A DNA stretch of 63,758 nt from Bacilli bacterium (GCA_035377365.1 DAOSSK010000001.1:5599-69356), one strand, 5' to 3'. Counted from the stretch's first letter, positions 2,845 through 33,317 are shown. Numbers and translations: made by a program. Notes: generated by a model from the letters alone, not told the origin.

Positions 2845-3757
2845 CTTTATGGGCATCCTTTCTTGGAAAATATTTATCATAATTTTCTTTTAATTTTTCT
2901 TTTGAAATATGAGTGTAAATTTGGGTAGTAGATAGATTTTCATGACCTAATAATTCTTGCACACTTCTTAAATCTGCCCCATTATCAAGTAAATCACTGG
3001 CAAATGAGTGTCTAAGCATATGGGGATGAATCTTCATCCCAAGTCCTGCATCATCTGCTAGTTTATCTAAAATAACTCTTACACCTCTAACTGTTAGAGG
3101 CGTTCCCTTAAAATTCAAAAATAATTCATCTGGTATCTCACCAGTTGTATTATTAGCTAATAGTTTAGATCTTGAATTATCTAAATAATCTAAAATTGCA
3201 TCTTTAATTCCTTCATAAATAGGAACATATCTTTCTTTATTACCTTTACCCATTACTAAAATATTAGAATTGTAATAATCAATATCTCTAATTCTTAAAG
3301 AGCAAAGTTCAGATACTCTTATTCCCATACCATATAATACTTCTAAAATAGCATAATCCCTAATTCCTAAAGGAGTTTTTTTATCAATTACATTAAATAG
3401 TTTATCGATATCTTCTGGATATAACCTTTCGGGTAAAGTTTGATTTTGTTTTACTGACTTTATCTCGCCAAAAGGATTAGATTCTTTTATCCCTTCTTGA
3501 ACTAAGAAACGATAAAAACTCCTTAAACTTGAAAGTTTACGATTAACTGATTTTGGTTCAAAACGTTCGTTTAAATAAGCTAAATAATATCTTGGAATAT
3601 TTGAAGAAATTTTTTGGATTGAAGAAAACTCATTTATCTTTAAATAAGCTTGAAAATCTTTTATATCTCTTCTGTAACTTCTAACAGTATGAAATGAATA
3701 ATTTCTCTCAATACTTAAATAGTCATTAAAAGCTTTAATTAATTGTTCATCAGTCAT
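2837..3757 (-). CDS. xerC: Tyrosine recombinase XerC/CodV type
   Basis: 306 aa with an N-terminal SAM-like domain and a catalytic region HPHMLRHSFA...LLGHENLSTTQIYTH. It sits immediately downstream of trmFO, as in the Bacillus trmFO-codV locus. Confidence 0.85.
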   Translation of the reverse strand: MTDEQLIKAFNDYLSIERNYSFHTVRSYRRDIKDFQAYLKINEFSSIQKISSNIPRYYLAYLNERFEPKSVNRKLSSLRSFYRFLVQEGIKESNPFGEIKSVKQNQTLPERLYPEDIDKLFNVIDKKTPLGIRDYAILEVLYGMGIRVSELCSLRIRDIDYYNSNILVMGKGNKERYVPIYEGIKDAILDYLDNSRSKLLANNTTGEIPDELFLNFKGTPLTVRGVRVILDKLADDAGLGMKIHPHMLRHSFASDLLDNGADLRSVQELLGHENLSTTQIYTHISKEKLKENYDKYFPRKDAHKDE

Positions 3758-6501: not shown

Positions 6502-7413
6502 TTTTCCTAATTCTTTTTCTAACTTTTGAAAATATTCTGTATTTAAATAATCCTTAATTCCTTTATCTTCAAGCATATATTCATAATAGTCATAATCTTT
6601 AAAAATAACGTATTTGAATAAATCAGTTGCTTCTTGTAAATTATCATTCATAACATTAAAACAAGCATAGTTATACCAAAGATCTAAAAAATCAGGATAC
6701 TTAGTAAGTCCTTTCGCATAAGTCTTTTTTGCTTTTTCATAATCTTTATCAATATCTTCATAAATTAATGCTAGGTTCAAATAAACATTAGGTACTATTT
6801 GCTCTTGATTTAACTCTTCCAAATAATAACCTTTAGCTATATTAAAAAAACCCATTTTACCATAAACAACACCTAAGTTATAATTAACCATATAACCTTT
6901 TGGATCAATCTTATAAGCCATTGTGAATAATTCTAAAGCTTTAGTATCATAATTTTTCTTTTCAAAACAGCTTCCCAAATTAAGATTAAGCCAATAATTG
7001 TTTGGTTCTAACTCCCATGCTTTTTCATAGTACTCTAATTCTTTATCGTCATTGCCTATTCTTTCATAGGCTAAAGCTAAGTTGCGATAAACAGCATATG
7101 ATTTACTTCTTTGTTTTTCTGCTAATAGTCCATATTCAATTGTTTTAGAAATATTTTCTTTTGTAAGGTATAAACCAACTAGCATCTCTTTTGCGACAAC
7201 TTCTTCAGGTATCACTACATCTAGAACTTTAAAACAGTCAATAGCTTGATCAATCTCACCAACGTAAATATATGCTCTTCCTAAATTCAGTAAATCCCCA
7301 GCTGTTGCTTTTTGGCTAAAGGCTTGTTTATAAATAACAATTGCTTGTTCATAGTCGCCTTTATCCATTGCCTTATTAGCTTTCTTGATAAGTTTACGAT
7401 ATTTTCTACCCAT
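6496..7413 (-). CDS. Tetratricopeptide-repeat (TPR) protein
   Basis: 305 aa with repeated 34-aa TPR-like units (e.g. YRNLALAYERIGNDDKELEYYEKAWELEPNN, NLGVVYGKMGFFNIAKGYY). It has no TM segment. Its start overlaps the CPBP stop (TAATG at 7413). Confidence 0.7.
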   Translation of the reverse strand: MGRKYRKLIKKANKAMDKGDYEQAIVIYKQAFSQKATAGDLLNLGRAYIYVGEIDQAIDCFKVLDVVIPEEVVAKEMLVGLYLTKENISKTIEYGLLAEKQRSKSYAVYRNLALAYERIGNDDKELEYYEKAWELEPNNYWLNLNLGSCFEKKNYDTKALELFTMAYKIDPKGYMVNYNLGVVYGKMGFFNIAKGYYLEELNQEQIVPNVYLNLALIYEDIDKDYEKAKKTYAKGLTKYPDFLDLWYNYACFNVMNDNLQEATDLFKYVIFKDYDYYEYMLEDKGIKDYLNTEYFQKLEKELGKV

Positions 7414-8202: not shown

Positions 8203-8228
8203 AAAAAAGTAATAGCTTAACTATTACT
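8203..8228 (-). terminator. Intrinsic terminator of thrS
   Basis: An AGUAAUAG / CUAUUACU 8-bp stem with a 5-nt loop, followed by a U-tract. The hairpin includes the thrS stop codon. Confidence 0.7.
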
Positions 8229-10128
8229 TTCTTAATTTGATTTCTTCTTTGATTTGTTTTATAAATTCTTTTAAACTTACAGTTGTTTGTTCTTGGCTTC
8301 CATACTTACGATAAGTTACCGACTTATCTTCTACTTCTTTATCACCAATTACAATTTGATAAGGTATCTTCATCGTTTGAGCTTCTCTAATCTTATAACC
8401 TAATTTCTCATCACGATAATCACTTTCAAAATTAATTCCTTCTTTTAAGAATACTTTTTCAAGTTTTCTTACATATTTACTATGAAGACTTAAATTAACT
8501 GGAATTAGTTTTACTTGAACTGGTGCAAGCCATGTTGGGAAAGCACCACCATAATGTTCAATTAGAATGCCAATAAATCTTTCCAAAGATCCATAAATAG
8601 CACGGTGTAACATAACTGGTCTAACTTTCGAACCGTCTTCTGCTACATATGTTAGATCAAATCTTTCTGGTAAGTTCATATCTAACTGAATTGTTCCACA
8701 TTGCCAGATTCTATTCATTGAATCTCTAATCTTAAAGTCTAGTTTAGGACCATAAAAAGCTCCATCTCCAGGATTTAATTTATAATCTTTCCCTGCTTTC
8801 TTACATGCTCTAGCTAAAGCTTTCTCTGAATAGTCCCAAATTTTAATTGAACCAATATATTTTTCCTCTGGTCTTGTAGATAGTTCAATATGGTATGTTA
8901 AACCAAATGTACTATAAATCTCATCAAATAGTTTAATTAAATTCATAACTTCTTTTTCAATTTGGTCTTTTCTCATAAAGATATGAGCATCATCTTGGGT
9001 AAAAGATCTAACTCTAAATAAGCCAGATAAAGCACCACTTGCTTCGTATCTATGAACTAAACCTAACTCTCCAACTTTTAATGGGAAATCACGATAAGAA
9101 TGAATATCACGTTTATAAACTAACATTCCGCCTGGACAGTTCATTGGTTTAATTGCAAACTCTTTATCATCAATTTTAGATGTATACATATTTTCTTTAT
9201 AGTTAAACCAGTGACCAGATACTTCCCATAAGTCTTTACTTAACATAATTGGTGTTATAATAAATTCATAACCTTCTCTTTTATGAACTTTATACCAGTA
9301 GTCTTCTAAGTTTTTCCTTAGCGTTAATCCTTTTGGTAAATAGAATGCAAAACCGGGACCATATTCACTAATCATAAATAAGTCTAATTCTTTTCCAAGT
9401 TTTCGATGATCTCTTTTAGCTCTTTCTTCTAAATCACGTAAATGACTATCTAACTCTTCTTTAGAGAAGAAACAAGTACCATAGATTCTTTGAAGTTGCT
9501 TGTTTTGTGAGTCTCCTCGCCAGTAAGCACCACTAACACTTAATAATTTAAAATTCTTTAATAAACTAGTATTAAGTACATGTGGTCCTCTACATAAATC
9601 TAAATAATCTCCTAATTTATAAATAGTAATAATTTCACCATCTTCAAGTTCATTAATTAATTCTGTTTTATATGGACATCCTTTAAATACTTTTAAAGCT
9701 TCTTTCTTAGATACTTCTCTTCTTTCAAAATTTAAACCAGCCCCAACTTGTCTTACCATCTCTTTTTCGATTATTTTTAAAGATTCTTCATCAAACTTCT
9801 CACCATCTAAATCAACATCATAATAAAAACCTTCTTCAATTGCTGGTCCAACCCCAAATAAAGCTTTAGGATAAAGCTTTAAAATAGCACTAGCCATTAA
9901 ATGACTACAAGAATGTCTTAATACTTCTAATGCTCTTTCATCATCTTTAGTAACAAGTTCTAATTTAGAATCTTTTAAAATCGGTCTTTTTAAATCATAT
10001 GCCTCACCATTTACTAAAGCATAAACCGAATTTTTCAAAAGTCCTTTAGAAATTGAACTTGCAATATCATATGGCGTCATTCCCTTTTCATATTCTTTTT
10101 TTGATTCATCTAAAAATTCAATTTTCAT
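8224..10128 (-). CDS. thrS: Threonine--tRNA ligase
   Basis: 634 aa with a TGS domain, the editing-domain HSCSHLMA motif, a class II core and an anticodon-binding domain. It is preceded by a T-box leader with Thr codons. Confidence 0.95.
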   Translation of the reverse strand: MKIEFLDESKKEYEKGMTPYDIASSISKGLLKNSVYALVNGEAYDLKRPILKDSKLELVTKDDERALEVLRHSCSHLMASAILKLYPKALFGVGPAIEEGFYYDVDLDGEKFDEESLKIIEKEMVRQVGAGLNFERREVSKKEALKVFKGCPYKTELINELEDGEIITIYKLGDYLDLCRGPHVLNTSLLKNFKLLSVSGAYWRGDSQNKQLQRIYGTCFFSKEELDSHLRDLEERAKRDHRKLGKELDLFMISEYGPGFAFYLPKGLTLRKNLEDYWYKVHKREGYEFIITPIMLSKDLWEVSGHWFNYKENMYTSKIDDKEFAIKPMNCPGGMLVYKRDIHSYRDFPLKVGELGLVHRYEASGALSGLFRVRSFTQDDAHIFMRKDQIEKEVMNLIKLFDEIYSTFGLTYHIELSTRPEEKYIGSIKIWDYSEKALARACKKAGKDYKLNPGDGAFYGPKLDFKIRDSMNRIWQCGTIQLDMNLPERFDLTYVAEDGSKVRPVMLHRAIYGSLERFIGILIEHYGGAFPTWLAPVQVKLIPVNLSLHSKYVRKLEKVFLKEGINFESDYRDEKLGYKIREAQTMKIPYQIVIGDKEVEDKSVTYRKYGSQEQTTVSLKEFIKQIKEEIKLRK

Positions 10129-10145: not shown

Positions 10146-10380
10146 AAAAAGCCCTTAAAAATATCTTTTAAGGACGAATTCTTCGCGGTACCACCTTAAT
10201 TTGCATTTTAAAAATGCACAGCTTTCACTAGGATATAACGCTCCTTATGCGGATACTTTTTAAGTATCAACTCCATGGTAGTAACTATTAACACTTTGGC
10301 ATTTTTTCACCAACCAAATACTCTCTGACTTTACTAGTATTAATAATCGTGTCCACTTCTTTGTTTATTAAGATTAAATT
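10146..10380 (-). promoter_or_regulatory. T-box leader (tRNA-Thr sensing) with terminator/antiterminator
   Basis: The minus strand carries the conserved T-box AAGGUGGUACCGCG (plus strand cgcggtaccacc at 10184-10195). It is followed by the terminator CCUUAAAA-GAUAU-UUUUAAGG plus a U-tract (10146-10173). The upstream stem I region has AGAGAG and adjacent Thr codons ACU-ACC-A (10282-10277). Confidence 0.85.
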
Positions 10381-17565: not shown

Positions 17566-18951
17566 ATGAATGTTATTCAGATTATCGCATTAGTGCTGTT
17601 TTTAATTATGTATGCATTAATGTTAGCGTTTAGTGAGAAAAGACCTTATATTACAAGTGGAGCTGCAATAATATTTATCATCTTGATGATAGTTAACTTT
17701 ATTACAAATCAAGATCATACATTTTTAGAAGCTGTAGATGCAACAGGAGTTCAGGCCTTTACCGACTTTAGCTCTTGGAACGTACTCTTGATGATAGCAG
17801 GTACTATGGGAGTCGTCGCCTTCTTTATTGAATCAAAGATGCCAAGTTTAATGGCCGATGTAATTATCAATAAAGTTCCTAATGTAAAATGGGCAATTGT
17901 AGGTTTATCTTTATTTTCCGGTTTAGTTTCTGCGTTTATTGATAACGTAGCTACAGTACTAATGGTTGCACCTGTAGCCTTAACAGTATGTAAGAAGTTA
18001 AAAATTAATCCAGTGCCAAGTATTATCGCAATTGCGATTTCATCTAACTTACAAGGTGCTGCAACTTTAGTAGGAGATACAACATCGATTCTATTAGCCC
18101 AACAAACCAATATGAACTTTGTAGATTTCTTCTGGATGAATGGAAAACCAAATCTATTCTTCATTGTTCAAGCAGGAGCTCTTGCATCAGCGTTTGTTTT
18201 ATTATTTGTATTTAGAAAGTATACTCAACCTTTAGAACAAGTAGAAAAAACTAAAGTTAAAGATTATTTCCCTTCATTCTTATTATTAGGAATTATCGTT
18301 GCTTTAATTATTGCATCATTCTTTACTATCCCAGTTCCTTGGTTAGATAGTATGAAAAATGGTATCATTTGTATTACAATTTTCTTAATTGGTTTTATTA
18401 GAAAACTTATTAAAACAAAAGATAACAAAAAAGAAGTTTCTAAAGAAGCTGTTAAATCTTTAGACTTTGAAACATTAATTTTATTATTTGGTTTATTTAT
18501 CGTAGTTGGTGGTTTAGGTGCTTTAGGTATTATTGGTAAAATTGGAGAAGCATTCAATAGTATCGCTAATAGTTTAAATATGAGCCCTAATGCAACAATC
18601 TTCGTTTTATATACAATTATCGTATTTATCTCAGTAATCATTTCAGCGTTTGTAGATAACATACCTTATGTGATGACAATGTTACCTGTAATTACCGCTT
18701 TACTTCCAGGTTTAGGTTTAGCCCCTGGAGATAATAAAGCATATCTATTATACTTCGGTTTATTAATCGGCGCTACTTTAGGTGGTAACATTACACCAGT
18801 TGGTGCAAGTGCTAATATTACAGGTATCGGGATGTTACGTCGAGAAGGTCATGAAGTTAAAACTGGTACTTTCATGAAAATCAGTGTTCCATTCACTTTG
18901 GTTGCAGTGTTAACTGGTTGGGTATTATGTTTCTTAATCTGGGGTCTATAA
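17566..18951 (+). CDS. ArsB/NhaD (ion transporter superfamily) permease
   Basis: 461-aa polytopic membrane protein with internally duplicated halves and motifs such as AFIDNVATVLMVAP / AFVDNIPYVMTMLP, typical of the ArsB/NhaD/CitMHS-like fold. The substrate cannot be assigned. Confidence 0.65.
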   Translation: MNVIQIIALVLFLIMYALMLAFSEKRPYITSGAAIIFIILMIVNFITNQDHTFLEAVDATGVQAFTDFSSWNVLLMIAGTMGVVAFFIESKMPSLMADVIINKVPNVKWAIVGLSLFSGLVSAFIDNVATVLMVAPVALTVCKKLKINPVPSIIAIAISSNLQGAATLVGDTTSILLAQQTNMNFVDFFWMNGKPNLFFIVQAGALASAFVLLFVFRKYTQPLEQVEKTKVKDYFPSFLLLGIIVALIIASFFTIPVPWLDSMKNGIICITIFLIGFIRKLIKTKDNKKEVSKEAVKSLDFETLILLFGLFIVVGGLGALGIIGKIGEAFNSIANSLNMSPNATIFVLYTIIVFISVIISAFVDNIPYVMTMLPVITALLPGLGLAPGDNKAYLLYFGLLIGATLGGNITPVGASANITGIGMLRREGHEVKTGTFMKISVPFTLVAVLTGWVLCFLIWGL

Positions 18952-19020: not shown

Positions 19021-19049
19021 TTGACAAATATAGCAGATAGTGTTATAAT
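19021..19049 (+). promoter_or_regulatory. Consensus sigma-A promoter (TTGACA-17-TATAAT) of ktrBA
   Basis: TTGACA is at 19021-19026 and TATAAT at 19044-19049, with an exactly 17-nt spacer. The ORF-track TTG start at 19021 is this -35 box. Confidence 0.7.
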
Positions 19050-19074
19050 ATTTACCATAATAGAGGACAAAAAG

Positions 19075-20406
19075 ATGGAAAAAAAGAAAAAAATTTCGCC
19101 ATTTTTAATAATTATAATAAGCTTTGTTTCAATAATTTTAATTGGTACAATTCTTTTATTACTGCCTTTTGCAACAAAAGAAGGAATTAAACTCGGATTT
19201 GTAAATGCATTGTTTATGGCTACTTCTTCTGTTTGTGTGACAGGCTTAGTACCAACTGCAACTTCTGTTGCTGATACTTATACTATGTTCGGGCAAATTG
19301 TAATCTATGTCTTAATTGAGATTGGTGGCTTAGGGTTTGTAAACATTTCAATGTTTGTTTTATACCTTTTAGGATTAAGAATTAATCAAGCAGACCGCTT
19401 CTTATTAAAAGAGGCGCTAAACTTAGATTCTACAAGAGGTATTTTAAAACTTCTTAAGGCTACTTTCTTAATTAGTTTTTGTATTCAACTATTAGGAGCT
19501 ATCGGAAATTTCTTTATCTTTAGAAATGATTTTCCTACTGACAAAGCAATTTGGATTAGTATCTTCCATGCTGGATCCGCTTTTAATAATGCTGGTTTAG
19601 ATGTCATAGGAAGTAGCTCTTTAATGCCATATAAAGGACATCTTTTATTAAACTTAAATACGATGGCTTTAATCATTTTAGGAGGAATTGGATTCATAGT
19701 AATATACGAAATCTTCTTGTATCCTAAAACAAAAAGACTATCTATTCATACAAAAATTGTTTTAAAAATGACCTTACTATTACTAGTTCTAGGTACCATA
19801 TTATTAAAAATTACTGAAGGTAGTGCAATGACTTGGTTACAAGCAGCGTTCCAAAGTACAACTGCTAGGACAGCAGGTTTTAGTACATATGACTTTTCAA
19901 AAATTTCGCTTCCTGGAGCTTTAATCTTTTGCTTCTTAATGTACATAGGAGCATCCCCAGCCGGTACTGGTGGCGGTATTAAGACAACGACTTTCTTTAC
20001 TGCTGCAAAATATATTGGTTCTTTTGCAAGAGGAACAAGACCTGTTACTCATAATCGAGAAATTTCAAAAGATTCAATTTCAAAAACTTTTGTCTTGATT
20101 GTACTTTCAATTGTTTATCTAGCGATGATTGTTTTATTTGTTTCAGTTATTGAACAACTAAATACTGCAAGCGAAGATGCTGATTTAATTAAAATTATGT
20201 TTGAAACATTATCAGCCTTTTCTACTGTTGGTAACTCTGAAGGTATTACACCTACATTACATTGGGTTAGTAAAATATTAATTTCAGCTACAATGCTTAT
20301 TGGCCGTTTAGGGCCAATCACAATTATCAGTTTATTAAATAAACGTTGGAATAAAGAAGGTACAGAACCTGTATCTTATTTAGAAGAAAAAATCATTATT
20401 GGTTAG
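19075..20406 (+). CDS. ktrB: Potassium uptake protein, TrkH/KtrB family membrane subunit
   Basis: Polytopic protein with repeated pore-loop-like segments (VCVTGL, NNAGLD, RTAGFST, STVGNSEG). The ATG at 19075 has an AGAGGA SD, and the gene is followed by ktrA. Confidence 0.8.
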   Translation: MEKKKKISPFLIIIISFVSIILIGTILLLLPFATKEGIKLGFVNALFMATSSVCVTGLVPTATSVADTYTMFGQIVIYVLIEIGGLGFVNISMFVLYLLGLRINQADRFLLKEALNLDSTRGILKLLKATFLISFCIQLLGAIGNFFIFRNDFPTDKAIWISIFHAGSAFNNAGLDVIGSSSLMPYKGHLLLNLNTMALIILGGIGFIVIYEIFLYPKTKRLSIHTKIVLKMTLLLLVLGTILLKITEGSAMTWLQAAFQSTTARTAGFSTYDFSKISLPGALIFCFLMYIGASPAGTGGGIKTTTFFTAAKYIGSFARGTRPVTHNREISKDSISKTFVLIVLSIVYLAMIVLFVSVIEQLNTASEDADLIKIMFETLSAFSTVGNSEGITPTLHWVSKILISATMLIGRLGPITIISLLNKRWNKEGTEPVSYLEEKIIIG

Positions 20407-20417
20407 GAGATATAAAA

Positions 20418-21080
20418 ATGAAAAAAACTATTGCTGTTTTAGGCTTAGGTCGCTTTGGCTTAGGTCTTGTAGAAGAATTAAACAAATTAAACGTTGATAT
20501 TATTGCCATTGATATCAATGGTGCTAATGTGCAAAAAGCTGGAGAGTTTGTAGAAAATGCCTTTATTTGTGACTCTACAAACGAAGATGCTTTAAGGGAA
20601 ATTGGAATTGAAAATGTTGATCATGCTGTTGTAGCTTTTGGTTCAAACTTTCAAGCAAGTCTAATTACTGTTATTACCCTAAAAGAAATGGGTGTAGAAA
20701 AAATTACTGTAAGAATTGATGATGAGAAATATGCTTCTGTTATGCAAAGAATTGGAGCAACAGATATCATCATTCCTCAAAAAATTGCTGGTATTCAACT
20801 TGCTAACAAATTAGTATCTGATAGCTTTTCAAACTACTTCAACTTATCTGAAGAATATGTTGTTGTTCAACTATCAGTTAATATGACAATTAAACCAGTT
20901 AAACTAAAAACATTAAATGCTAGAAATGTTTTTGGCATTAACTTGCTTTTAATTAAAAGAGTAAACAAACACTTTTCTCCTACTGGGGACGATTCAATTT
21001 TACCAGGTGATGAAATATTTGTTTTAGGAACAAAGAAAAACATTCATAAATTTGATCAACATATAAATGAGAGGGAATAA
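20418..21080 (+). CDS. ktrA: Potassium uptake protein, TrkA/KtrA regulatory subunit (RCK_N + RCK_C)
   Basis: 220 aa with a Rossmann start IAVLGLGRFGLGL and a C-terminal RCK_C-like region. It has a TAGGAGA SD. Confidence 0.8.
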   Translation: MKKTIAVLGLGRFGLGLVEELNKLNVDIIAIDINGANVQKAGEFVENAFICDSTNEDALREIGIENVDHAVVAFGSNFQASLITVITLKEMGVEKITVRIDDEKYASVMQRIGATDIIIPQKIAGIQLANKLVSDSFSNYFNLSEEYVVVQLSVNMTIKPVKLKTLNARNVFGINLLLIKRVNKHFSPTGDDSILPGDEIFVLGTKKNIHKFDQHINERE

Positions 21081-21530: not shown

Positions 21531-21564
21531 AAAAAACACATTAGTTATTCTAATGTGTTTTTTT
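21531..21564. terminator. Bidirectional intrinsic terminator between the lipoprotein gene (+) and ribU (-)
   Basis: AACACATTAG / CTAATGTGTT forms a 10-bp stem with a 5-nt loop, flanked by an A-run and a T-run. It includes the ribU stop codon. Confidence 0.8.
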
Positions 21565-22315
21565 GTTCTTCAGTTTCCTCTATTACTTCCAAAACTTCTT
21601 TTTCTGTAAACTCGTGTACTAGTGGTGAAATTCTCTTATAAACTAAGAAAGTAATTATATTTATCATTATTGATAAAAGCATATTAAAAGGTAATGCTCC
21701 ATAAAGTAAATACTTACCCATATAGTTATCTTGATTAACACCAGGAATTACACTAATCATTTCAACAAATGTCTCTACATCACCATTAAAGTATAATTTG
21801 ATATATGTTGGAATAATAAAAATATAATTAATAATGACAGCTGTTATTATCCAAGCAATACTACTTACAACTAAGGAGATACTGGCTCCTTTTTTTGTTC
21901 TATATTTTTTATAAATAATTGCAGCCGGAATAACTGAAGCAAAGCCAATAATTAAATCAGTTATTTCCCCTACATATGCTGAATTAGTTGTTAAAATTCC
22001 AAATAGAAATCTTAAAATCAATATTCCAATTGCTGATACTGGTCCTAAAGTAAATCCACCTATTAAAATCGGCAAATTAGAAAAATGAATTTTTAAAAAT
22101 GGGGGAAAGAAAGGTAAAGAGAAATTAAGCTGATATGCTATTACCGAAAACGAACTAAAAATTGCAATCAAAATCATTATTCTTAGTTGATTTCTTCTTT
22201 TACCCAAACTTGGTTTATCTTTTTCTTTTTTGTTTTTAATCAAAGCTCTAATAATTAATGCTACTAATAAAGCAATTGATACACTTATTAAAATAATTTT
22301 TAGAGTCTGATTCAT
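21545..22315 (-). CDS. ribU: Riboflavin transporter, ECF-type S component (RibU family) with an extra N-terminal TM helix
   Basis: The core aligns by eye to RibU/YpaA (…NFSLPFFPPFLKIHFSNLPILIGG…), and an FMN riboswitch lies immediately upstream. A GGAGG SD 5 nt before the ATG at 22315 supports the long form. Confidence 0.8.
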   Translation of the reverse strand: MNQTLKIILISVSIALLVALIIRALIKNKKEKDKPSLGKRRNQLRIMILIAIFSSFSVIAYQLNFSLPFFPPFLKIHFSNLPILIGGFTLGPVSAIGILILRFLFGILTTNSAYVGEITDLIIGFASVIPAAIIYKKYRTKKGASISLVVSSIAWIITAVIINYIFIIPTYIKLYFNGDVETFVEMISVIPGVNQDNYMGKYLLYGALPFNMLLSIMINIITFLVYKRISPLVHEFTEKEVLEVIEETEEQKNTLE

Positions 22316-22327
22316 GTTACCTCCAAT

Positions 22328-22500
22328 AAAAAACTCGTGAAAATCCTCACGAGCAAAAAATCAATCTAACTCAATAGACCCCTTCTTTCGTCTAGACTAT
22401 ACTATCGGTTTTGGAATTGCACCAAATCGCGTCTCTAAATTAGAAACTCGTGGACTTTTACCACCGGTCGGGAATTACACCCTGCCCTGAAGATTTATTC
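22328..22500 (-). promoter_or_regulatory. FMN riboswitch (RFN element) with intrinsic terminator
   Basis: The minus strand reads AUCUUCAGGGCAGGGUGUAAUUCCCGACCGGUGGUAAAAGUCCACGAG...GCGAUUUGGUGCAAUUCCAAAACCGAUAGUAUAGUCUAGACGAAAGAAGGGG, which are the RFN hallmark blocks. The terminator CUCGUGA-GGAUUU-UCACGAG plus U6 is at 22328-22353. Confidence 0.9.
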
Positions 22501-25977: not shown

Positions 25978-26006
25978 ATTATATGTAAACAAGTCGTGTA
26001 ATGTAA
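25978..26006 (-). promoter_or_regulatory. Predicted promoter (TTACAT-17-TATAAT) of miaB
   Basis: The -35 is at 26006-26001 and the -10 at 25983-25978, with a 17-nt spacer. Confidence 0.5.
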
Positions 26007-26032
26007 AGATTTTGTATATTATTTTACCTAAT

Positions 26033-26063
26033 AATAAAAAGATAAGAAACTAAGCTCTTATCT
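26033..26063 (-). terminator. Intrinsic terminator after the antiporter/P-II-like operon
   Basis: AGAUAAGA / UCUUAUCU forms an 8-bp stem with an 8-nt loop, followed by a U-rich tract on the minus strand. Confidence 0.65.
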
Positions 26064-26106
26064 TTTCTTTTTAATATTTCTTTAATCGCCTATTAAGAAA
26101 GGTAGG

Positions 26107-26466
26107 TTATTTAGGTTTTTTAGGCGATAAAGGATAAATTCCTGAAACAGGAACAGTAAACATAAATCCTACTGTTTTTTGTCTTGATCTTTCTACAATC
26201 TTTCTCACAGAATTTACTGCTTTTTCTAGTGTTTCTTCATCTGGTATAACTGTAAAAATAGTTTTAGAGTTTTGTTGAATATCTTTAGTTTCAACTTTAA
26301 ATAAACCACCACCTAATAAACCACCAAGTCCATCTCTTTTTAGAATAGCTGCCGCCATTCCTTCTGATTCAATAATAGTAGCTCCTCTAACTTTTAATGA
26401 TACAAACTCTTCTAAAATTTCATCTAAATACGCTAAATCGTTTAATACAATAAATAATACGTTCAT
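26107..26466 (-). CDS. Small P-II-like (beta-alpha-beta x2) signal-transduction-type protein, function unknown
   Basis: 119 aa whose pattern MNVLFIVLND..(helix)..VRGATIIESEG, Gly-rich loop DGLGGLLGGGLF, then TIFTVIPDEE..(helix)..GFMFTVPV resembles the P-II/DarA-like fold. An AGGAGA SD lies 7 nt upstream, and the gene starts 11 nt after the antiporter gene. Confidence 0.45.
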   Translation of the reverse strand: MNVLFIVLNDLAYLDEILEEFVSLKVRGATIIESEGMAAAILKRDGLGGLLGGGLFKVETKDIQQNSKTIFTVIPDEETLEKAVNSVRKIVERSRQKTVGFMFTVPVSGIYPLSPKKPK

Positions 26467-26477
26467 AATTTATTCTC

Positions 26478-27839
26478 CTATTCTTGTGGAACCAAGTCTT
26501 CCACACTTGATAATTCTTGTAATTTATCAAGACCATTAATTTCTCCTGCTTTAGATATCGAAATCTTCGCAAAGATTGGTCCTGTCGTCTCATATACTAA
26601 AATGCTTAACATAATGATTGTGGAAATAATTGGATACATAGATGGTAATGTTGCCCCAACAATTACTAATAACCCAATGGAAATTCCCCCTTGAGGTAAT
26701 AACCCTAAGCCCAACCACTTGCGAACATTTGGGTGACTATTAGCTATTTTTGCCCCGATTGCCGTACCTAACCATTTACCAAATCCACGAGCAAAAATGT
26801 ATACCAATGCTACAATTGCTATCATCCATTCCACTTTTAAAATTCCTAAATCTAAACTAGCACCAGCCATTGTAAAGAAAATAATATAGAATGGTGTAGT
26901 AAAATCATTAACTGATTGGAATGTACGGTCTGGTCTTCTTGTAAGATTAGCTATCATCGCTCCAGTTACAATACTAGATAACAATGATGAAAGACTAATT
27001 CCGTATTGGCCTAATAATTTATCATGATTTAATAAATTAAATAATCCAACTGTTAACACAATTGATGCAACGGCTAATACTTGAATATTGTCTCTTTCGC
27101 GATCAAACTTCCTTGCTGCATAAGATAATACTATACCAATAATAGCACCTACAATCATTGAACCAAATACTTCAATAAATGGTTTACTAATCATTAACCA
27201 TAATGGCATATCAACTCCTGGTGATGGTACTAAGATTTGGGCAATTGAACTAAAGAATCCAAATACAATAATACCAAAAATATCATCTAAAGCAGTAATT
27301 GGTAAAATTGCTCTTGTAACTGGGCCATAAGCACGATATTGCCTAATAACCATCAACGTTGCTGCTGGAGCTGTTGCTGCTGACATACTTGCAAGTACCA
27401 TTGACATTGCAATATTTGGTTTTGCGAAAGGCTCATAACCAATAATTCCATGGGCCTCATTAAAACTCTGTGGTTTTGGTACAACTAACATTAATAAGAA
27501 TACTAATAATACTGCTCCTAATACCTCAAATGCTGTGAGGATTGTAATCTCCTTACCTTGCTTTTTAATATTAGCAACATTAAATTCACTACCAATACTA
27601 AAAGCAATAAACGCTAAAGCCATTTCGCTAATAAATCTCAAAGTATCTTGATCATTAGCATTAATTAATCCTTTAAAACCAGGAACGATTAATCCTAGTG
27701 ATGGTCCTAGTAATACACCAAATACTAAATAACCAGAAACATTAGGCAATTTTAAAGCTTTAGCTACCTGTCCTCCGATAAAGCCAACAATCAAAACGAT
27801 TGCGACTTTCAATAAAATGTTAAATAACATTCCATCCAT
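26478..27839 (-). CDS. Cation:proton antiporter, CPA2 (Na_H_Exchanger) family
   Basis: 453 aa with about 12-13 TM helices and a typical N-terminus ...IVGFIGGQVAKALKLPNVSGYLVFGVLLGPS. There is no fused RCK/TrkA domain. Confidence 0.8.
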   Translation of the reverse strand: MDGMLFNILLKVAIVLIVGFIGGQVAKALKLPNVSGYLVFGVLLGPSLGLIVPGFKGLINANDQDTLRFISEMALAFIAFSIGSEFNVANIKKQGKEITILTAFEVLGAVLLVFLLMLVVPKPQSFNEAHGIIGYEPFAKPNIAMSMVLASMSAATAPAATLMVIRQYRAYGPVTRAILPITALDDIFGIIVFGFFSSIAQILVPSPGVDMPLWLMISKPFIEVFGSMIVGAIIGIVLSYAARKFDRERDNIQVLAVASIVLTVGLFNLLNHDKLLGQYGISLSSLLSSIVTGAMIANLTRRPDRTFQSVNDFTTPFYIIFFTMAGASLDLGILKVEWMIAIVALVYIFARGFGKWLGTAIGAKIANSHPNVRKWLGLGLLPQGGISIGLLVIVGATLPSMYPIISTIIMLSILVYETTGPIFAKISISKAGEINGLDKLQELSSVEDLVPQE

Positions 27840-27862
27840 TTTAATCTACCTCCGTTTATATT

Positions 27863-28008
27863 AAAAAAACGCATAACTATAGTTATACGCTTAATCACTC
27901 CTATGAGGTTAGCTGACGGGTTCAGACAATTAAGTTGCCTTATGCTTTTCTTAAGCGATTCACCCCAGTAATTGGGTCCCCCACTAGAATGATTCGGAGT
28001 TCATTATT
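27863..28008 (-). promoter_or_regulatory. c-di-AMP riboswitch (ydaO-yuaA class) with intrinsic terminator
   Basis: The minus strand reads GAACUCCGAAUCAUUCUAGUGGGGGACCCAAUUACUGGGGUGAAUCGCUUAAG...GAACCCGUCAGCUAACCUCAUAGGAGUGAUUAAGCG. It is followed by the hairpin GCGUAUAAC-UAUA-GUUAUGCG plus U7 (27863-27890). Confidence 0.85.
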
Positions 28009-28037
28009 ACTCTATCAAATTTTTATTGTTTTGTCAA
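28009..28037 (-). promoter_or_regulatory. Predicted promoter (TTGACA-17-TAGAGT) of the c-di-AMP riboswitch operon
   Basis: The -35 is at 28037-28032 and the -10 at 28014-28009. The riboswitch begins a few nt downstream. Confidence 0.55.
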
Positions 28038-28143: not shown

Positions 28144-29184
28144 ATGAAAAAATATTTGCTTTATTTTGCTCTTCATTATCCGAAATCAGAAATTGAAGAC
28201 TATATCAAAATGATTCACCAAAGTGAATATCACCTAAATGAAACTATTACAAACGATAGTTATGCTTTTTTGGTTCAAGAATATGAAAAAGCAAAACCTA
28301 ATAGTAAGTTTTTATACGAATATATAAGCGAGGATGTTGTAAGAGTAAATCTTGGAAATTATAAAGCTTCCGAGTTTTCTCTTCACTACTTATTTGATTC
28401 ATTTAAAGAAACTATTAATAACAATCAAGGTTCAATTGCAAGTATGGACGAGAAATTAGCTCTTCTTTTAGATTTAATTAAATCCAAAGAAATAGCCTTA
28501 GATTATGATGATTCTTTAAAGAAGATAGAAAATTATAAAAAGTTAGGATACCCTGCTATTCACCATAGTGAAGCTTTTAAAAAAGCATATGATCCTCACT
28601 ATCGTATTATTCAAAGTTCTAATTTAACACCAGGATTAAAAGATTTTCATTTGTTTTATTTTCTTGATAATTTAATCAAAGAAAAAAATAAACTAATCGT
28701 TGCAATTGATGGTAGATCTAGCTCTGGTAAAACTACTGTAGCTCTAACTTTAAAAGAAAAATACAACGCAACTATTATTCATATTGACCATTTCTTTTTA
28801 CCTAACTTTTTAAAAACTAAAGAAAGATTAGCAGAAATAGGTGGCAATATTAATTATGAAGAAATAGAAAAAGTTTTAAGAGAAATTAAGCACAATACTA
28901 CTTATACTTATCAAGCTTTTGATTGCAAAGTCCAAGAATACTATCCAGTAACAATCGAAACTTCTAATCTTATTGTTTTTGAAGGTGTTTATAGTTTACA
29001 TGAAAAACTATTTCCTTATTATGACACTAGTGTCTTGCTAACATTATGTAAAAAAGAACAAATTAGTCGTTTAAAACAAAGAGAAACACCAGCTATTTAC
29101 TTACAATTTTTAAATGAATGGATTCCTTTAGAAAATGAATATTTTACAGATAATTTATATAAAAAAATCGGGATTATTATTTAA
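28144..29184 (+). CDS. Uridine kinase-family P-loop protein with a ~185-aa N-terminal domain of unknown function
   Basis: The C-terminal half has IVAIDGRSSSGKTT (Walker A), IIHIDHFF and LIVFEGVY, typical of the Udk/PRK family. I do not recognise the N-terminal half. An AGAGGTGAGG SD is present. Confidence 0.6.
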   Translation: MKKYLLYFALHYPKSEIEDYIKMIHQSEYHLNETITNDSYAFLVQEYEKAKPNSKFLYEYISEDVVRVNLGNYKASEFSLHYLFDSFKETINNNQGSIASMDEKLALLLDLIKSKEIALDYDDSLKKIENYKKLGYPAIHHSEAFKKAYDPHYRIIQSSNLTPGLKDFHLFYFLDNLIKEKNKLIVAIDGRSSSGKTTVALTLKEKYNATIIHIDHFFLPNFLKTKERLAEIGGNINYEEIEKVLREIKHNTTYTYQAFDCKVQEYYPVTIETSNLIVFEGVYSLHEKLFPYYDTSVLLTLCKKEQISRLKQRETPAIYLQFLNEWIPLENEYFTDNLYKKIGIII

Positions 29185-29748: not shown

Positions 29749-30525
29749 CTATTCAATAATCCTTATTGTTTCTATTTTAGAAACTTTTTTTAATTGTTCA
29801 TCATATTCTACTAAAATCGCCGAAAATTGAGTTTTACCTTCGTTCTCTGGCTCAAATCTTAGAGTCTCTTTTCCTAAGAAACGAGTAATGATGATATCTT
29901 TTTGAACACCAAGTACACTCTCTAAAGCACCAGTCATACCTACATCAGTAATATAAGCTGTTTTCCCATTTAGAATTGTAGCGTCGTTTGTTTGAACATG
30001 TGTATGAGTTCCAAAAATAATATCAATTTTACTTGTAAAGTAATAACCAAAAGCAATAGCTTCACTTGTAGCTTCACTATGGAAATCACAAATATAGATA
30101 TCACTTTTTACATTTTCTAAAATTTCATCTACAACTAAAAAAGGATTTTTAGTATTATTACCTGGCATAAAAATTTGGCCTAAAACTTGGATTACAGTAA
30201 TTGTTAGGTCATTGTATTTTTTGGTAACATATCCAACACCATATTCTGTGTCAATATTTGCTGGTCTTACGATATTTTTTGTTTTGTTTATATAGTTAAA
30301 GATCTCTTTATTATTAAAAGCATGATTACCTAAAGTAACTACATTGACTCCTTGCTCTAGTAACCATTTATAATGTTTCTCATTCATTCCTTTTCCGTGA
30401 GTTATATTTTCTCCATTTACTATAAGAAAGTTAATTGTCTCTTTTGCTTTAATTTTAGCTAACCCTGAAGCAAAAGCCTTTCTTCCTAGTTTAGAATAAA
30501 TATCCCCTACAATCAATATCTTCAT
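29749..30525 (-). CDS. ymdB: 2',3'-cyclic-nucleotide 2'-phosphodiesterase YmdB (metallophosphoesterase)
   Basis: Starts MKILIVGDIYSKLGR and carries the GENITHGKG, DFHSEATSE and GTHTHVQTND motifs. It lies directly downstream of rny, as in Bacillus. Confidence 0.85.
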   Translation of the reverse strand: MKILIVGDIYSKLGRKAFASGLAKIKAKETINFLIVNGENITHGKGMNEKHYKWLLEQGVNVVTLGNHAFNNKEIFNYINKTKNIVRPANIDTEYGVGYVTKKYNDLTITVIQVLGQIFMPGNNTKNPFLVVDEILENVKSDIYICDFHSEATSEAIAFGYYFTSKIDIIFGTHTHVQTNDATILNGKTAYITDVGMTGALESVLGVQKDIIITRFLGKETLRFEPENEGKTQFSAILVEYDEQLKKVSKIETIRIIE

Positions 30526-30569: not shown

Positions 30570-30597
30570 AAAAAAAGGAAATGATTGCTCATTTCCT
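30570..30597 (-). terminator. Intrinsic terminator/attenuator after rny
   Basis: GGAAAUGA / UCAUUUCC forms an 8-bp stem with a 4-nt loop, followed by a U6 tract. It overlaps the rny stop codon. Confidence 0.65.
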
Positions 30598-32182
30598 ATT
30601 TTGCAACTTGATTTACCCTTGTTTCTCTAATTACTGTAATCTTAATTGTACCTGGGTAAGTTAGTTCTTTTTCAATTTCTTTCTTTAATTCAAGAGCTAG
30701 CTTTTCTGCTTGAGCATCATTGATTTCAGCTGGTTTAACCATTACTCTGATTTCTCTGCCTGCTTGTAATGCATAACTGCGCTCTACACCTTTGTGTTTT
30801 GAAACTAGGGCTTCTAGGGCTTCTAAACGTTTGATATATGCTTCGATAGATTCGTTTCTTGCTCCTGGACGAGCGGCAGAAATAGTATCAGCTGTTGCCA
30901 CTAAAACAGCAATAATTGAATTAGCTGTTTCATCTCCATGATGGCTTAATACGGCATCAATAACTTCTGGTCTTTCACGATATCTTCTAACAATATCAGC
31001 ACCTAACTCTACGTGACTACCTTCCATAGTAGTATCTACTGCTTTTCCAATATCATGGAATAAGCCTGCACGGCGAGCTACGATTTCGTTTTCTCCAATT
31101 TCAACTGCTAAATTGCCGGCGATCATTGCAACTTCAATTGAATGAGCTAGAGCATTTTGACCATAACTAGTACGGAATTTTAATCTTCCAAGTAATTTTA
31201 CTAATTCTGGATGTACACGGCCAATACCTGTATCATAAACTGCTTTATCTCCAGCTTCTTTAATTTCAAGTTCCATTTCTTTCTCAAACTTTTGAACAAT
31301 TTCTTCAATTCTTGTTGGTTGAATTCTACCATCAGAAATTAAAGCTTCTAAAGTTCTTCTAGCAACTTCTCTTCTAACAGGATCAAAACAAGAAACAACT
31401 ACAGCTTCTGGTGTATCGTCGATAATCAAATCAACTCCAGTAGCAGCTTCTAAAGCACGGATGTTTCTTCCTTCTCTTCCTATTATCCTTCCCTTCATTT
31501 CATCATTAGGTAAGTTAACTACTGAAACTGTTTGTTCAGCTACAATCTCGCCTGCATAAGTTTGAATAACTTGTGTTAAAAGTTCTTTTGTCTTCTTATG
31601 AACTTCGGCGTTAGCTTTGTCAACTCCCTCTTTCACAATCTGAGATATTTCTAAATCCATTTCTTCTTCAATTTGTTTTAGAACTATCTTCTTTGCTTCT
31701 TCTTTGTCTAGTTTAGAAATTTCCAATAATTTTTCTGTTTGTTCTTGAACTAGTGTCTCCACTTTGCTAGTTTTTTCGTCTAATTCTACTTTTTGCTTTT
31801 CTAAAGCTTCTTCTTTGCGAGAAATAGTACTTTCTCTTTTATCAAGATTGATGCTACGATTATCTAATCTTTCTTCCCTTTGTGTTACTTTTGTTTCTAA
31901 AGAATTTAAGTAATTTGTACGTTCTCTATTTTCTTTTTCAAATTCTTGTTTTAATAGATGAACTTCTCGTTTAGCACCAAGTATCAATTCCTTTTTATAT
32001 TCGTCAGCTTCTTTCTGAGCAACTTCTAAAAATGCTTTAGCAGATTGTCCCGCTTTTTTTAGTTTGGAGCGAACTACGTAAAAGCCAAGAGCAAATCCAC
32101 CAGCTAATAGCAATATGGAGCCTAGAACAATTAATACTACTGTTACAGCAGGTGATACCGCCATAACAATTAATTCGTTCAT
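30596..32182 (-). CDS. rny: Ribonuclease Y
   Basis: N-terminal TM anchor, coiled coil, KH domain (GRIIGREGRNIRALE) and HD domain (LFHDIGKA). The preferred start is ATG 32182 (GGAGG 6 nt upstream); the ORF track extends to 32197. Confidence 0.95.
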   Translation of the reverse strand: MNELIVMAVSPAVTVVLIVLGSILLLAGGFALGFYVVRSKLKKAGQSAKAFLEVAQKEADEYKKELILGAKREVHLLKQEFEKENRERTNYLNSLETKVTQREERLDNRSINLDKRESTISRKEEALEKQKVELDEKTSKVETLVQEQTEKLLEISKLDKEEAKKIVLKQIEEEMDLEISQIVKEGVDKANAEVHKKTKELLTQVIQTYAGEIVAEQTVSVVNLPNDEMKGRIIGREGRNIRALEAATGVDLIIDDTPEAVVVSCFDPVRREVARRTLEALISDGRIQPTRIEEIVQKFEKEMELEIKEAGDKAVYDTGIGRVHPELVKLLGRLKFRTSYGQNALAHSIEVAMIAGNLAVEIGENEIVARRAGLFHDIGKAVDTTMEGSHVELGADIVRRYRERPEVIDAVLSHHGDETANSIIAVLVATADTISAARPGARNESIEAYIKRLEALEALVSKHKGVERSYALQAGREIRVMVKPAEINDAQAEKLALELKKEIEKELTYPGTIKITVIRETRVNQVAK

Positions 32183-32303
32183 ATCTACCTCCATCATTTA
32201 ATATATCTGATCTTTATAAATTAGTTTATATAAATATCTATAGTTATTATACACCAAATAAGTGGTTTAGTCAATTAAAAGATTTAAGCCTTTTTTACCT
32301 ATC

Positions 32304-32335
32304 ATAAAAAAATAGTCTTGATAAACAAGACTATT
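32304..32335 (-). terminator. Intrinsic terminator of recA
   Basis: AAUAGUCUUG / CAAGACUAUU forms a 10-bp stem with a 5-nt loop, followed by a U-tract. It overlaps the recA stop. Confidence 0.75.
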
Positions 32336-33317
32336 ATTTATATGCTTCTCTAACTTTATCTTCTATTTCTTTCGTAAGGTTAGGATTTTCTTCTAAGAAC
32401 TTCTTCACGTTCTCTTTTCCTTGGCCTAATTTCTCATCATTGTATGCATACCAAGATCCTGATTTCTTCACAATATCTTTATCAACTGCCATATCGATAA
32501 TTTCAGCTGTACGAGAAACACCTTTACCATAAATTAAATCAACATCGCAAACTCTAAATGGAGGAGCTACTTTATTCTTTACAACTCTAATTCTAGTTAA
32601 GTTACCTATTGGATCTCCTTCGCTCTTTAATTGTTCAATACGTCTAACATCTAAACGAATTGTAGAGTAGAACTTTAAGGCTCTACCTCCAGTTGTAGTT
32701 TCTGGGTTACCAAAGAAAACTCCTACTTTTTCTCTAATTTGGTTAATAAAAATAGCAATTGTTTTTGTTTTAGAAATAACACCACTTAGTTTTCTCATCG
32801 CTTGACTCATAAGTCTTGCTTGTAAGGCTACATGTGCATCTCCCATATCACCATCAATTTCTGCTTTTGGTACTAAAGCTGCAACTGAATCTATTACGAT
32901 AATATCAATCGCCCCACTTCTAATTAAGTACTCAGCAATCTCTAAAGCTTGTTCTCCAGTATCTGGTTGAGAAAGAATTAAATTCTCAATATCTACTCCT
33001 AAAGCAGCTGCATATTTAGGGTCTAATGCATGCTCAGCATCAATAAATGCTGCATAGCCTCCAGCTTTTTGAGCTTCTGCTATCGCATGTAAAGCAAAAG
33101 TCGTTTTTCCTGAACCTTCTGGTCCATATATCTCTACAATTCTACCTCTTGGATAACCCATAACACCAAGTGCGATATCTAATTTTAAAGATCCTGATGA
33201 AATAACTTCGATATCACCAATTGAGTGATCACCAAGTTTCATGATTGAACCTTTACCATATTCTTTTTCTATTTGCTTGAAGGCTTCCTTCAAAGCTTGT
33301 TCTTTTTCTTTAGCCAT
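32334..33317 (-). CDS. recA: Recombinase A
   Basis: 327 aa with Walker [10 protein letters not shown] and the conserved [22 protein letters not shown] loop regions. Confidence 0.97.

Follow-up and report, generated by a model that had tools for sequence, protein, structure and literature searches.

We analysed a 63,758-nucleotide stretch of DNA from a Bacilli bacterium (GCA_035377365.1, DAOSSK010000001.1:5599-69356; called the window below, with a G+C content (GC) of 29.6%), in which a cyclic di-adenosine monophosphate (c-di-AMP) riboswitch of the ydaO/yuaA class stands in front of two genes, the first encoding a cation/proton antiporter (CPA) and the second a small P-II-like protein. The minus strand carries every feature of this operon, namely the riboswitch, promoter site, terminators and two genes, and their coordinates are collected in Table 1. 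Several of these elements had been proposed in a preliminary description, and we return to its claims where the relevant results are given. Relatives of the operon were drawn from two samples. The genomic set comprises 80 of the 158 confirmed loci from a genome-collection scan seeded with the P-II-like family, and its sources are almost all Acholeplasmataceae, Acholeplasmatales or "Bacilli" metagenome-assembled genomes (MAGs) together with cultured Acholeplasma and Paracholeplasma; one of them, L001, is an Acholeplasmataceae MAG that is 99% identical to the window. The distant set comprises 80 metagenomic loci from a scan seeded with a distant P-II-like sub-alignment. The wider P-II-like family was represented by a profile (A5) made from a 53-sequence alignment.

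Table 1. Features of the riboswitch, antiporter and P-II-like operon, in window coordinates
Feature	Position	Strand	Basis or remark
Sigma-70-type promoter-like site	28009..28037	-	-35 TTGACA 28037..28032, 17-nt spacer, extended -10 TGnTAGAGT, -10 at 28014..28009
c-di-AMP riboswitch aptamer (ydaO/yuaA class)	27883..28009	-	Rfam RF00379
Pseudoknot 5' strand, hairpin-loop segment CUUAAU	27929..27934	-	Near-invariant in 46 leaders
Pseudoknot 3' strand, 3'-tail segment AUUAAG	27890..27895	-	Abuts/overlaps terminator 5' arm
Intrinsic terminator (attenuator), stem AAGCGUAUAAC/GUUAUGCGUUU + U run	27860..27892	-	Directly 3' of aptamer
Shine-Dalgarno GGAGG of antiporter gene, 9 nt 5' of ATG	27849..27853	-	Sequence
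Cation/proton antiporter, 453 amino acids, CPA fold	26478..27839	-	Pfam Na_H_Exchanger
Shine-Dalgarno AGGAG of P-II-like gene	26475..26479	-	Overlaps antiporter TAG stop (26478-26480)
P-II-like protein, 119 amino acids, ferredoxin-like double beta-alpha-beta	26107..26466	-	Pfam, AlphaFold2, Foldseek
Operon-end hairpin, AT-rich, + U-rich sequence	26036..26067	-	13-pair stem in minimum-free-energy and centroid folds

The assignment of the leader to the ydaO class, made in the preliminary description from its hallmark blocks, is borne out by both sequence and structure. Against the window, the covariance model RF00379 aligns over its whole length (1-134) with a score of 84.9 bits and E 2.4e-18, where the gathering score is 38, and the blocks CCGAAUC..GGGGGACCCA and GGGGUGAAUC..ACCCGUCAGCUAACC both fall inside the match. 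When the Rfam structure with its pseudoknot was projected on 46 aligned homologous leaders, 94.7% of cells paired in the standard way, compared with no more than 52% in controls with slid partners. Compensatory changes on both sides were found at eight pairs in these leaders, and the covariation score was reached by 0 of 500 shuffles. The CUUAAU/AUUAAG pseudoknot (helix 8) is paired in 96.7% of cells and shows no covariation because both of its strands are conserved. By these measures the leader belongs, with a high score and nothing out of the ordinary, to a known c-di-AMP riboswitch class.

The hairpin and U7 terminator that had been placed directly after the aptamer are also present. An 11-pair hairpin with a loop of four (27892..27867) runs into a U7 tract, which appears on the plus strand as an A-run at 27863-27869, and this attenuator hairpin also forms when the leader is folded to minimum free energy (-47.6 kcal/mol, z = -3.8). 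In most riboswitch-positive leaders, those of metagenomic loci at 30-60% GC among them, a hairpin and U-run abut the pseudoknot 3' strand. The lower 5' arm of the attenuator (AAGCGUAU) is conserved across leaders, and the upper stem varies compensatorily. At the other side of the aptamer, the TTGACA-17-TAGAGT promoter named earlier can be found where it was described; it matches at 10 of 12 positions, has the TG, and would start transcription near 28002. Promoter-like sites are not enriched in the region, 10 having been found against 12 expected in shuffled sequence, so it is position and not statistics that makes this promoter plausible. For the direction of control, precedent is available. 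The validated c-di-AMP riboswitches covered in review (kimA, ktrAB, kdp) all terminate transcription on ligand binding (PMC10636490; PMC6488665), and for a Dehalobacter example OFF behavior was predicted from the same architecture and then shown (PMC9337991). By analogy with these cases, we infer on good grounds that the operon is under OFF control. One complementarity, CGCUUAA/UUAAGCG, was considered as an antiterminator and rejected, since the hairpin that contains it is variable and the pairing lacks conservation. In the full leader, folding to minimum free energy also joins the P1 5' strand CUCCG (27995-27999) to the Shine-Dalgarno region CGGAG (27849-27854) of the antiporter gene on the minus strand. 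We regard this pairing as incidental, the 3' strand of P1 being itself similar to a Shine-Dalgarno sequence, although a translational layer is conceivable. At the far end of the operon, the AT-rich hairpin of Table 1 is probably the terminator of the bicistronic unit, although the evidence is weak: the predicted segment has z = -1.2 and, having fewer than three GC pairs, was missed by the terminator scanner. A further promoter-like site (26007..25978) follows this hairpin, and the next gene encodes a MiaB-like methylthiotransferase.

The product of the first gene is recognized by Pfam as a Na_H_Exchanger protein (PF00999), with a match spanning residues 15-418 at 103.9 bits (cut-off 26.2; E 1.1e-29), and a Pfam scan found no TrkA_N or TrkA_C (RCK/KTN) domain in either protein of the operon. 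The preliminary description had called this protein a CPA2 antiporter without RCK domains. The antiporter family and the missing RCK domains hold; the CPA2 profile TIGR00932 scores below its cut-off, and for what appears from its sequence to be a divergent branch "CPA2-like" is the safer name. The AlphaFold2 model of the antiporter (predicted local distance difference test (pLDDT) 78.8; predicted template modelling score (pTM) 0.79) retrieves MjNhaP1, NapA, PaNhaP, NHA2 and KefC in Foldseek with probability 1.0 and template modelling (TM) scores of 0.63-0.78. As these structures span both CPA1 and CPA2, the fold is unable to separate the two groups. The motifs are more telling of the transported ion. 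The DD motif, D185-D186, is invariant in the antiporter family, aligns with the ND of MjNhaP1 and is retained across P-II-paired antiporters; the protein also has R351/K355, and the TDP of transmembrane helix 4 in CPA1 proteins is here TAP (T156-A157-P158, alignment to MjNhaP1). The QD motif of Kef-type K+/H+ exchangers is missing, with DD in its stead. QD is strictly conserved in K+/H+ exchangers, whereas the motif of Na+/H+ exchangers is ND or, in NapA for instance, DD (PMC11150392). Judged by this motif, the antiporter more probably exchanges Na+(Li+) for H+ than exports K+. Some databases call the antiporter "Kef-type K+ transport system membrane component KefB." Given DD and not QD, such "Kef-type K+ transport" labels are generic, and Breaker's group has shown "kefB" genes to be better matches to napA (PMC9337991); the labels "Kef-type K+ transport" and "hypothetical protein" on the gene pair are probably misleading. 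The antiporter ends in a cytoplasmic tail of about 25 C-terminal residues after the last transmembrane helix (window 26478-26560; ..YETTGPIFAK.SISKAGEINGLDKL). Its pattern YE..GP..K.A..AGEI is common to P-II-paired antiporters of very different lineages (L081, L087, L107, L124, L131 and others), and the tail (..KAGEI..) might be where the P-II-like protein docks, the comparison having covered paired antiporters only.

The P-II resemblance of the protein encoded by the second gene shows in a borderline profile score and in structure comparison. Pfam P-II (PF00543) gives it 23.2 bits (cut-off 25; E 9e-5), and the same profile matches 30 of 34 relatives at E <= 1, the best at 7e-7. In the AlphaFold2 model (single chain, pLDDT 78), a beta-alpha-beta unit is followed by a long insert and a second beta-alpha-beta unit, in agreement with the doubled pattern noticed earlier, and the T-loop-like insert at about residues 35-66 is long, partly helical and partly disordered. 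The top Foldseek matches in the PDB are the canonical PII proteins GlnZ, GlnB, GlnK and TT1020 (probability 1.0, target-normalised TM 0.7-0.8, 13-21% identity), with PotN at rank 41. PDB searches with the 119-residue sequence and with the close-family profile gave nothing useful, the close-family profile (A1) matching no chain, and the A5 profile matches PDB PII chains down to E 4e-6. On the strength of its model, the protein is a divergent P-II-fold protein, closest to canonical PII. The resemblance to DarA/PstA and SbtB suggested in the preliminary description turned out to be weak: the DarA/PstA family PF06153 matched 0 of 34 family members at E <= 1, and in the PDB the A5 profile reached a single SbtB-like chain, 3dfe at E 0.42, and none of PstA/DarA at E <= 10.

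The residues that are kept and lost in this protein limit what it may bind. Conserved positions in the family and A5 alignments are G28-x-T30, S34-x-G36, K68 (PII K58) and G100..F103..P106. In PII proteins the B-loop, R38/Q39, Tyr51 and R101/R103 serve ATP/ADP/2-oxoglutarate binding and uridylylation, and in canonical PII the ATP phosphates are gripped by K90, R101 and R103. Aligned to 2gw8 and 2eg1, the 119-residue protein has T-V-G-F-M-F in place of the PII B-loop G-D-G-K-[IV]-F. Additionally, R38/Q39, Tyr51 and R101/R103 are absent, the T-loop base reads G-M-A-A-A with no YKGAEY-like motif, and the C-terminus is GIYPLSPKK; K90, R101 and R103 are lost in the family as a whole (A5 alignment). 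With the PII signature residues gone, the P-II-like protein probably does not bind Mg-ATP/2-oxoglutarate in the canonical manner. The Gly-rich loop to which the preliminary description drew attention exists as a run, DGLGGLLGGGLF (residues 45-56), but it is confined to the closest relatives, and only G46, G54 and F56 are conserved family-wide. Its candidacy as a nucleotide-binding P-loop was rejected, since the run is not conserved and is disordered in the AlphaFold2 model. An exhaustive profile search for the P-II-like family returned 520 clusters (50% identity) at E <= 1e-3. Just 7 of these are found at E <= 1e-30, and the Acholeplasma type is thus one twig of a larger family.

The ATG of the P-II-like gene follows the TAG stop of the antiporter gene by 11 nt, and the AGGAG overlapping that stop, the separate Shine-Dalgarno sequence that had been ascribed to this gene from the start, suggests translational coupling. 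The antiporter gene directly precedes the P-II-like gene in 78 of the 80 genomic loci, and the other two have no upstream DNA. Distant P-II-like relatives, 27-56% identical among themselves, again adjoin an antiporter gene. Among the 80 metagenomic loci, a same-strand antiporter gene lies upstream in 27 and downstream in 30, and about nine more overlap the open reading frame (ORF) call; 11 have no adjoining antiporter despite room on both sides, and the remainder are not assessable. Either gene order can be found: the P-II-like gene comes first in P0257 and the antiporter gene in P0320, which belongs to a 4.08-Mb genome. Because adjacency persists through divergence and gene-order inversion, in company with the translational coupling suggested above, it argues for a physical and functional partnership of the antiporter and the P-II-like protein. 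The gene pair is apparently a large, conserved and unstudied module: no paper was found that describes the antiporter/P-II-like module or its c-di-AMP riboswitch, and earlier ydaO gene lists may name antiporters. Genes associated with ydaO are reportedly listed by Nelson et al. in 2013 and Block et al. in 2010.

Some arrangements of the pair depart from the usual two genes. Two database entries (P0280 and P0284) fuse the C-terminus of the antiporter to the P-II-like domain; these are probably gene-calling or assembly artefacts, yet they place both genes together. A 422-residue entry, P0273, fuses a PrmC-like methyltransferase to a P-II-like domain, and at L084 prmC and prfA (229-2285) are found just upstream of the pair; a neighborhood of this kind could have given rise to the fusion artefactually, by read-through or gene calling. 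In a metagenomic subgroup of loci (L097-L099, L101, L103, L106, L110, L116, L117, L119, L126, L127, L136 and L141), the P-II-like gene is followed by two tandem Na_H_Exchanger-like genes. The first of these diverges strongly (E ~1e-6 to 1e-12); the second is a clearer match (E ~1e-40 to 1e-51). No DD motif was seen in the first tandem gene of L098, the sole locus scanned for it.

The riboswitch is distributed less evenly than the pair. A covariance model built on 13 Rfam-confirmed leaders was run over the 80 genomic loci, and the riboswitch was found upstream of the antiporter gene in 44 of the 64 loci with enough upstream DNA, with one more cut by a contig end. The riboswitch also stands 5' of an antiporter-then-P-II-like arrangement in the metagenomic loci L124 (30% GC), L125 (36%), L131/L149 (60%) and L165 (41%), whose proteins have an identity to those of the window of 41-48% for the P-II-like protein and 52-55% for the antiporter. 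In a neighbour-joining tree of the antiporters, drawn without support values, riboswitch loci fill most of the Acholeplasma-type clade and also occupy early branches of its sister clade, with riboswitch-free subclades nested among them. This pattern suggests that the riboswitch was acquired early in the antiporter-first lineage and then lost several times. The possibility of a hidden, divergent leader in the riboswitch-negative loci was rejected on two grounds: Rfam in permissive E-value mode found no divergent or other leader in the 8 loci searched, and the upstream intergenic regions of these loci are short (about 80-240 nt where the upstream gene can be placed). Since whole subclades lack the riboswitch, its distribution marks it as a layer that recurs but can be dispensed with, added to a two-gene module of greater age. 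The preliminary description had proposed a survey of the pair and its leader; the pair is conserved (78 of 80 genomic and at least 57 of 80 distant loci), and in many lineages it exists without the leader. Other regulatory RNAs were seen near the pair in individual loci. In L017 a c-di-GMP-I riboswitch (7003-7077) lies about 2.7 kb downstream of the pair, and in L155 a lysine riboswitch and then a group II intron occur just 3' of the P-II-like gene (3404-3943 and 5368-5432).

Genes adjoining the operon have the conserved Firmicute-type order recA - rny (RNase Y) - ymdB (29749-30525, 30596-32197 and 32334-33317, minus strand), which is consistent with a Bacilli/Acholeplasmatales origin. Divergent to the operon, a 346-residue ORF (28144-29184, plus strand) carries a P-loop-like GRSSSGKTT motif and has no Pfam match at E <= 1e-5. 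Two further leader RNAs were identified on the minus strand. A flavin mononucleotide (FMN) riboswitch (22376-22498, 106 bits) has downstream of it a gene for the S-component of an energy-coupling factor (ECF) transporter (21545-22315, minus strand), probably a RibU-like riboflavin uptake protein. A T-box leader (10167-10370, 97 bits, barely over its gathering score of 93) has at its 3' side a threonyl-tRNA synthetase-like gene (8224-10128, minus strand) with TGS, tRNA_SAD, class II core and anticodon-binding domains.

What would such an operon do? We favor, with modest confidence, an OFF-riboswitch-controlled Na+(Li+)/H+ antiporter operon with a P-II-like regulatory subunit. At high c-di-AMP, the aptamer would fold through P1 and its pseudoknot, and the adjoining hairpin and U-tract would stop RNA polymerase before it reaches the genes. 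At low c-di-AMP, as in K+ limitation or hyperosmotic/salt stress, transcription would read through. The first gene product would be a divergent CPA2-like antiporter (NapA-type, DD-motif), most probably extruding Na+(Li+) for H+, and the P-II-like protein, made by translational coupling, would most likely be its cytoplasmic regulatory subunit. In this capacity it could act in a manner analogous to GlnK on AmtB or SbtB on SbtA, and it would stand in for the RCK domains of other CPA2 carriers (KefC, KhtTU, CpaA). Low c-di-AMP would signal K+ scarcity or hyperosmotic stress, and more antiporter would then move Na+ out while K+ and osmolytes are brought in. Related observations come from cyanobacteria and from other riboswitches. 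A dacA mutant of Synechocystis up-regulates nhaS6, and c-di-AMP affinity columns enriched NhaS2 and NhaS5 from this organism (PMC10117731); Na+ and c-di-AMP riboswitches are known to cooperate in osmotic responses (PMC9337991). The preliminary description had found an OFF switch on an antiporter unusual, as c-di-AMP usually activates K+ exporters at the protein level. This apparent paradox assumes a K+ exporter. With DD in place of QD, the carrier would probably not be one, the paradox would disappear, and repression by c-di-AMP, for which nhaS6 is a precedent, fits what may be expected of an osmotic/ion regulon.

The K+ uptake genes of the window can be placed in the same picture. A KtrB/TrkH-type gene (19021-20406, plus strand) and a KtrA-like RCK gene with TrkA_N and TrkA_C domains (20418-21080, plus strand) lie about 6 kb from the operon, and the Rfam scan of the window found no c-di-AMP riboswitch before them. 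A gene for a CitMHS-family transporter (17566-18951, plus strand) precedes the Ktr genes. TrkA_C/RCK_C is the c-di-AMP-binding domain class in KtrA, KtrC, KhtT and CpaA (PMC10636490). With a TrkA_C domain and no riboswitch before the Ktr genes, K+ uptake here is plausibly under protein-level control, and the riboswitch would be devoted to the antiporter operon.

A number of observations weigh against a riboswitch-controlled Na+(Li+)/H+ antiporter with a dedicated P-II-like subunit. Regarding the RNA, the riboswitch is absent while the pair is kept in the A. laidlawii/oculi/granularum group, in L010, L016, L032 and L034 and in the L068-L080 clade, and it is absent from all loci ordered P-II-like then antiporter. 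The homologous leaders of L019, L024, L047, L061, L020, L029 and L067 have no obvious terminator. A conserved antiterminator pairing was sought in the homologous leaders and none was found, so the OFF logic rests on architecture and precedent. Regarding the antiporter, NCBIfam TIGR00932 (2a37, CPA2; TC 2.A.37) gives 43.2 bits against a cut-off of 238.3, and searches of the PDB with its sequence and its family profile returned nothing below E 0.3 (best MjNhaP1, E 0.3), so that its classification depends on Pfam, predicted fold and motifs. Some carriers that are possibly of DD type, KhtU or CpaA for example, may move K+. The DD/QD rule itself is a correlation from one paper (PMC11150392). Finally, orphan P-II-like paralogs of 113-116 residues that do not adjoin a transporter gene occur in at least two relatives, L038 (2083-2433) and L048 (1197-1538), where the paralog is upstream of the riboswitch; tblastn matches to such a paralog were found in L031, L039, L046 and L055 as well, with about 39-44% identity across the six. 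In view of these orphans, the P-II-like protein may have other targets.

Three other accounts of the locus share much of this evidence. In the account closest to the preliminary description, the antiporter is a Kef-like K+ exporter that is repressed at the RNA level, and the P-II-like protein is a c-di-AMP receptor, the two making up a two-layer module. This we consider unlikely. The database "KefB" labels point toward it, as does the co-occurrence of the riboswitch and the pair over distant lineages, and c-di-AMP binders do exist in the PII superfamily, namely DarA/PstA (PMC4316997, PMC10636490) and SbtB (PMC8654305, PMC10117731). The loss of K90, R101 and R103 with G-x-T, S-x-G and K68 kept even makes a different adenine nucleotide conceivable as ligand. 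However, the antiporter has the DD and not the QD motif, the best structural matches of its partner are GlnZ, GlnB and GlnK, and the pair is common without a c-di-AMP riboswitch. The profile searches speak in the same direction, with PF06153 at 0 of 34, no PstA/DarA chain for A5, 3dfe as its sole SbtB-like match, and no PDB chain at all for A1. That the P-II-like protein senses c-di-AMP is not favored by its family membership and seems to us rather improbable.

A second account, which we also find doubtful, would have the transporter take up or retain K+ or some other osmotic cation, under repression in the manner of kimA, ktrAB and kdp and with the P-II-like protein as its gate. Validated c-di-AMP riboswitch targets are indeed mostly K+ importers (PMC10636490; PMC6488665), and the Ktr-like genes of the window, being without a riboswitch of their own, could leave a riboswitch-controlled K+ function to sit elsewhere. 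Against this, the CPA fold and DD motif point to Na+/Li+ for H+ exchange, and the window already encodes a standard Ktr-type importer. To our knowledge, no CPA2 member is an established K+ importer. The preferred antiporter reading can also be taken further than we would ourselves take it. The P-II-like family, at 520 clusters a widespread branch of PII that on this reading nearly always lies beside a DD-type CPA antiporter gene, might be a dedicated nucleotide-sensing gate of these antiporters, with c-di-AMP or a co-varying nucleotide as effector in the lineages that have the riboswitch; a single messenger would then act on the same Na+/H+ antiporter twice, through the RNA and through the protein, independently of RCK domains. 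We regard this proposal as a long shot. Least probable of all is mere co-transcription, with the P-II-like protein signaling elsewhere like the proposed apo-DarA "third messenger": the orphan paralogs and the 11 of 80 distant loci without an adjoining antiporter would suit it, but adjacency that survives extreme divergence and order inversion is typical of physical partners, the overlap of Shine-Dalgarno sequence and stop codon suggests that the two proteins are made in stoichiometric amounts, and the conserved antiporter tail offers a possible docking site.

The biology of c-di-AMP has been framed around repressed importers of K+ and compatible solutes and activated, RCK-bearing K+ exporters. 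What is new here is the association of the riboswitch with a DD-type CPA antiporter and its P-II-like partner, and the extent of the pair. A conserved riboswitch on a Na+/H+-type antiporter would add Na+/pH handling to the RNA-level c-di-AMP regulon. The host lineage, Acholeplasmatales, has no cell wall, so osmotic control should be critical in these organisms.

Comparison with characterized systems shows which parts of the operon are familiar. The riboswitches of kimA and ktrAB in B. subtilis and of kdpFABC in the B. cereus group belong to the same RF00379 family, have the same aptamer-then-terminator layout and operate in the same ion/osmotic field, but their target is a K+ importer and not a DD-type antiporter with a P-II-like protein. 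NapA-type antiporters, and napA-like genes under Na+ riboswitches, share the DD motif, the CPA fold and riboswitch control in the salt/osmotic response. Here, however, similarity to NapA is very low (about 18-19% identity in a structural alignment), the ligand is c-di-AMP with a presumed OFF outcome and not Na+ with an ON outcome, and a P-II-like partner is present. KefC, KhtTU and CpaA are likewise carriers of CPA2 type, controlled by cytoplasmic modules that sense nucleotides: c-di-AMP is bound by KhtT and CpaA (PMC10636490), and AMP and glutathione by the RCK domains that regulate KefC (PMC11150392). The window operon differs from these in that it has no fused or adjoining RCK/TrkA domain, a P-II-fold partner and DD for QD, with Na+ the probable substrate over K+, and in that c-di-AMP would act through the RNA, as a repressor. 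DarA/PstA (PF06153) is likewise a small PII-superfamily protein in Firmicutes-related c-di-AMP users, but none of the 34 family members match that family and DarA/PstA is not transporter-linked. In the SbtA-SbtB system of cyanobacteria, a small PII-superfamily gene again lies beside a secondary transporter, in this case a Na+/HCO3- symporter; SbtB is thought to plug or regulate SbtA via a long T-loop and has links to c-di-AMP (PMC8654305; PMC10117731). The partner in the window is a PF00999 protein and not of the SbtA family, the 3dfe match is weak at E 0.42, and the C-terminus, which reads ..GIYPLSPKKPK, lacks the CGPxGC redox loop that SbtB has there. Closest in fold and profile are GlnK-AmtB and canonical PII proteins (GlnB, GlnK, GlnZ), which share the transporter-PII gene pairing, although B-loop and T-loop residues are replaced in the window protein, its T-loop region is longer and partly helical, and its partner is an antiporter and not an ammonium channel. 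A P-II-like family tied to CPA antiporters is a candidate new transporter-regulator class to set beside GlnK-AmtB, SbtB-SbtA and PotN, and this would stand independently of the riboswitch.

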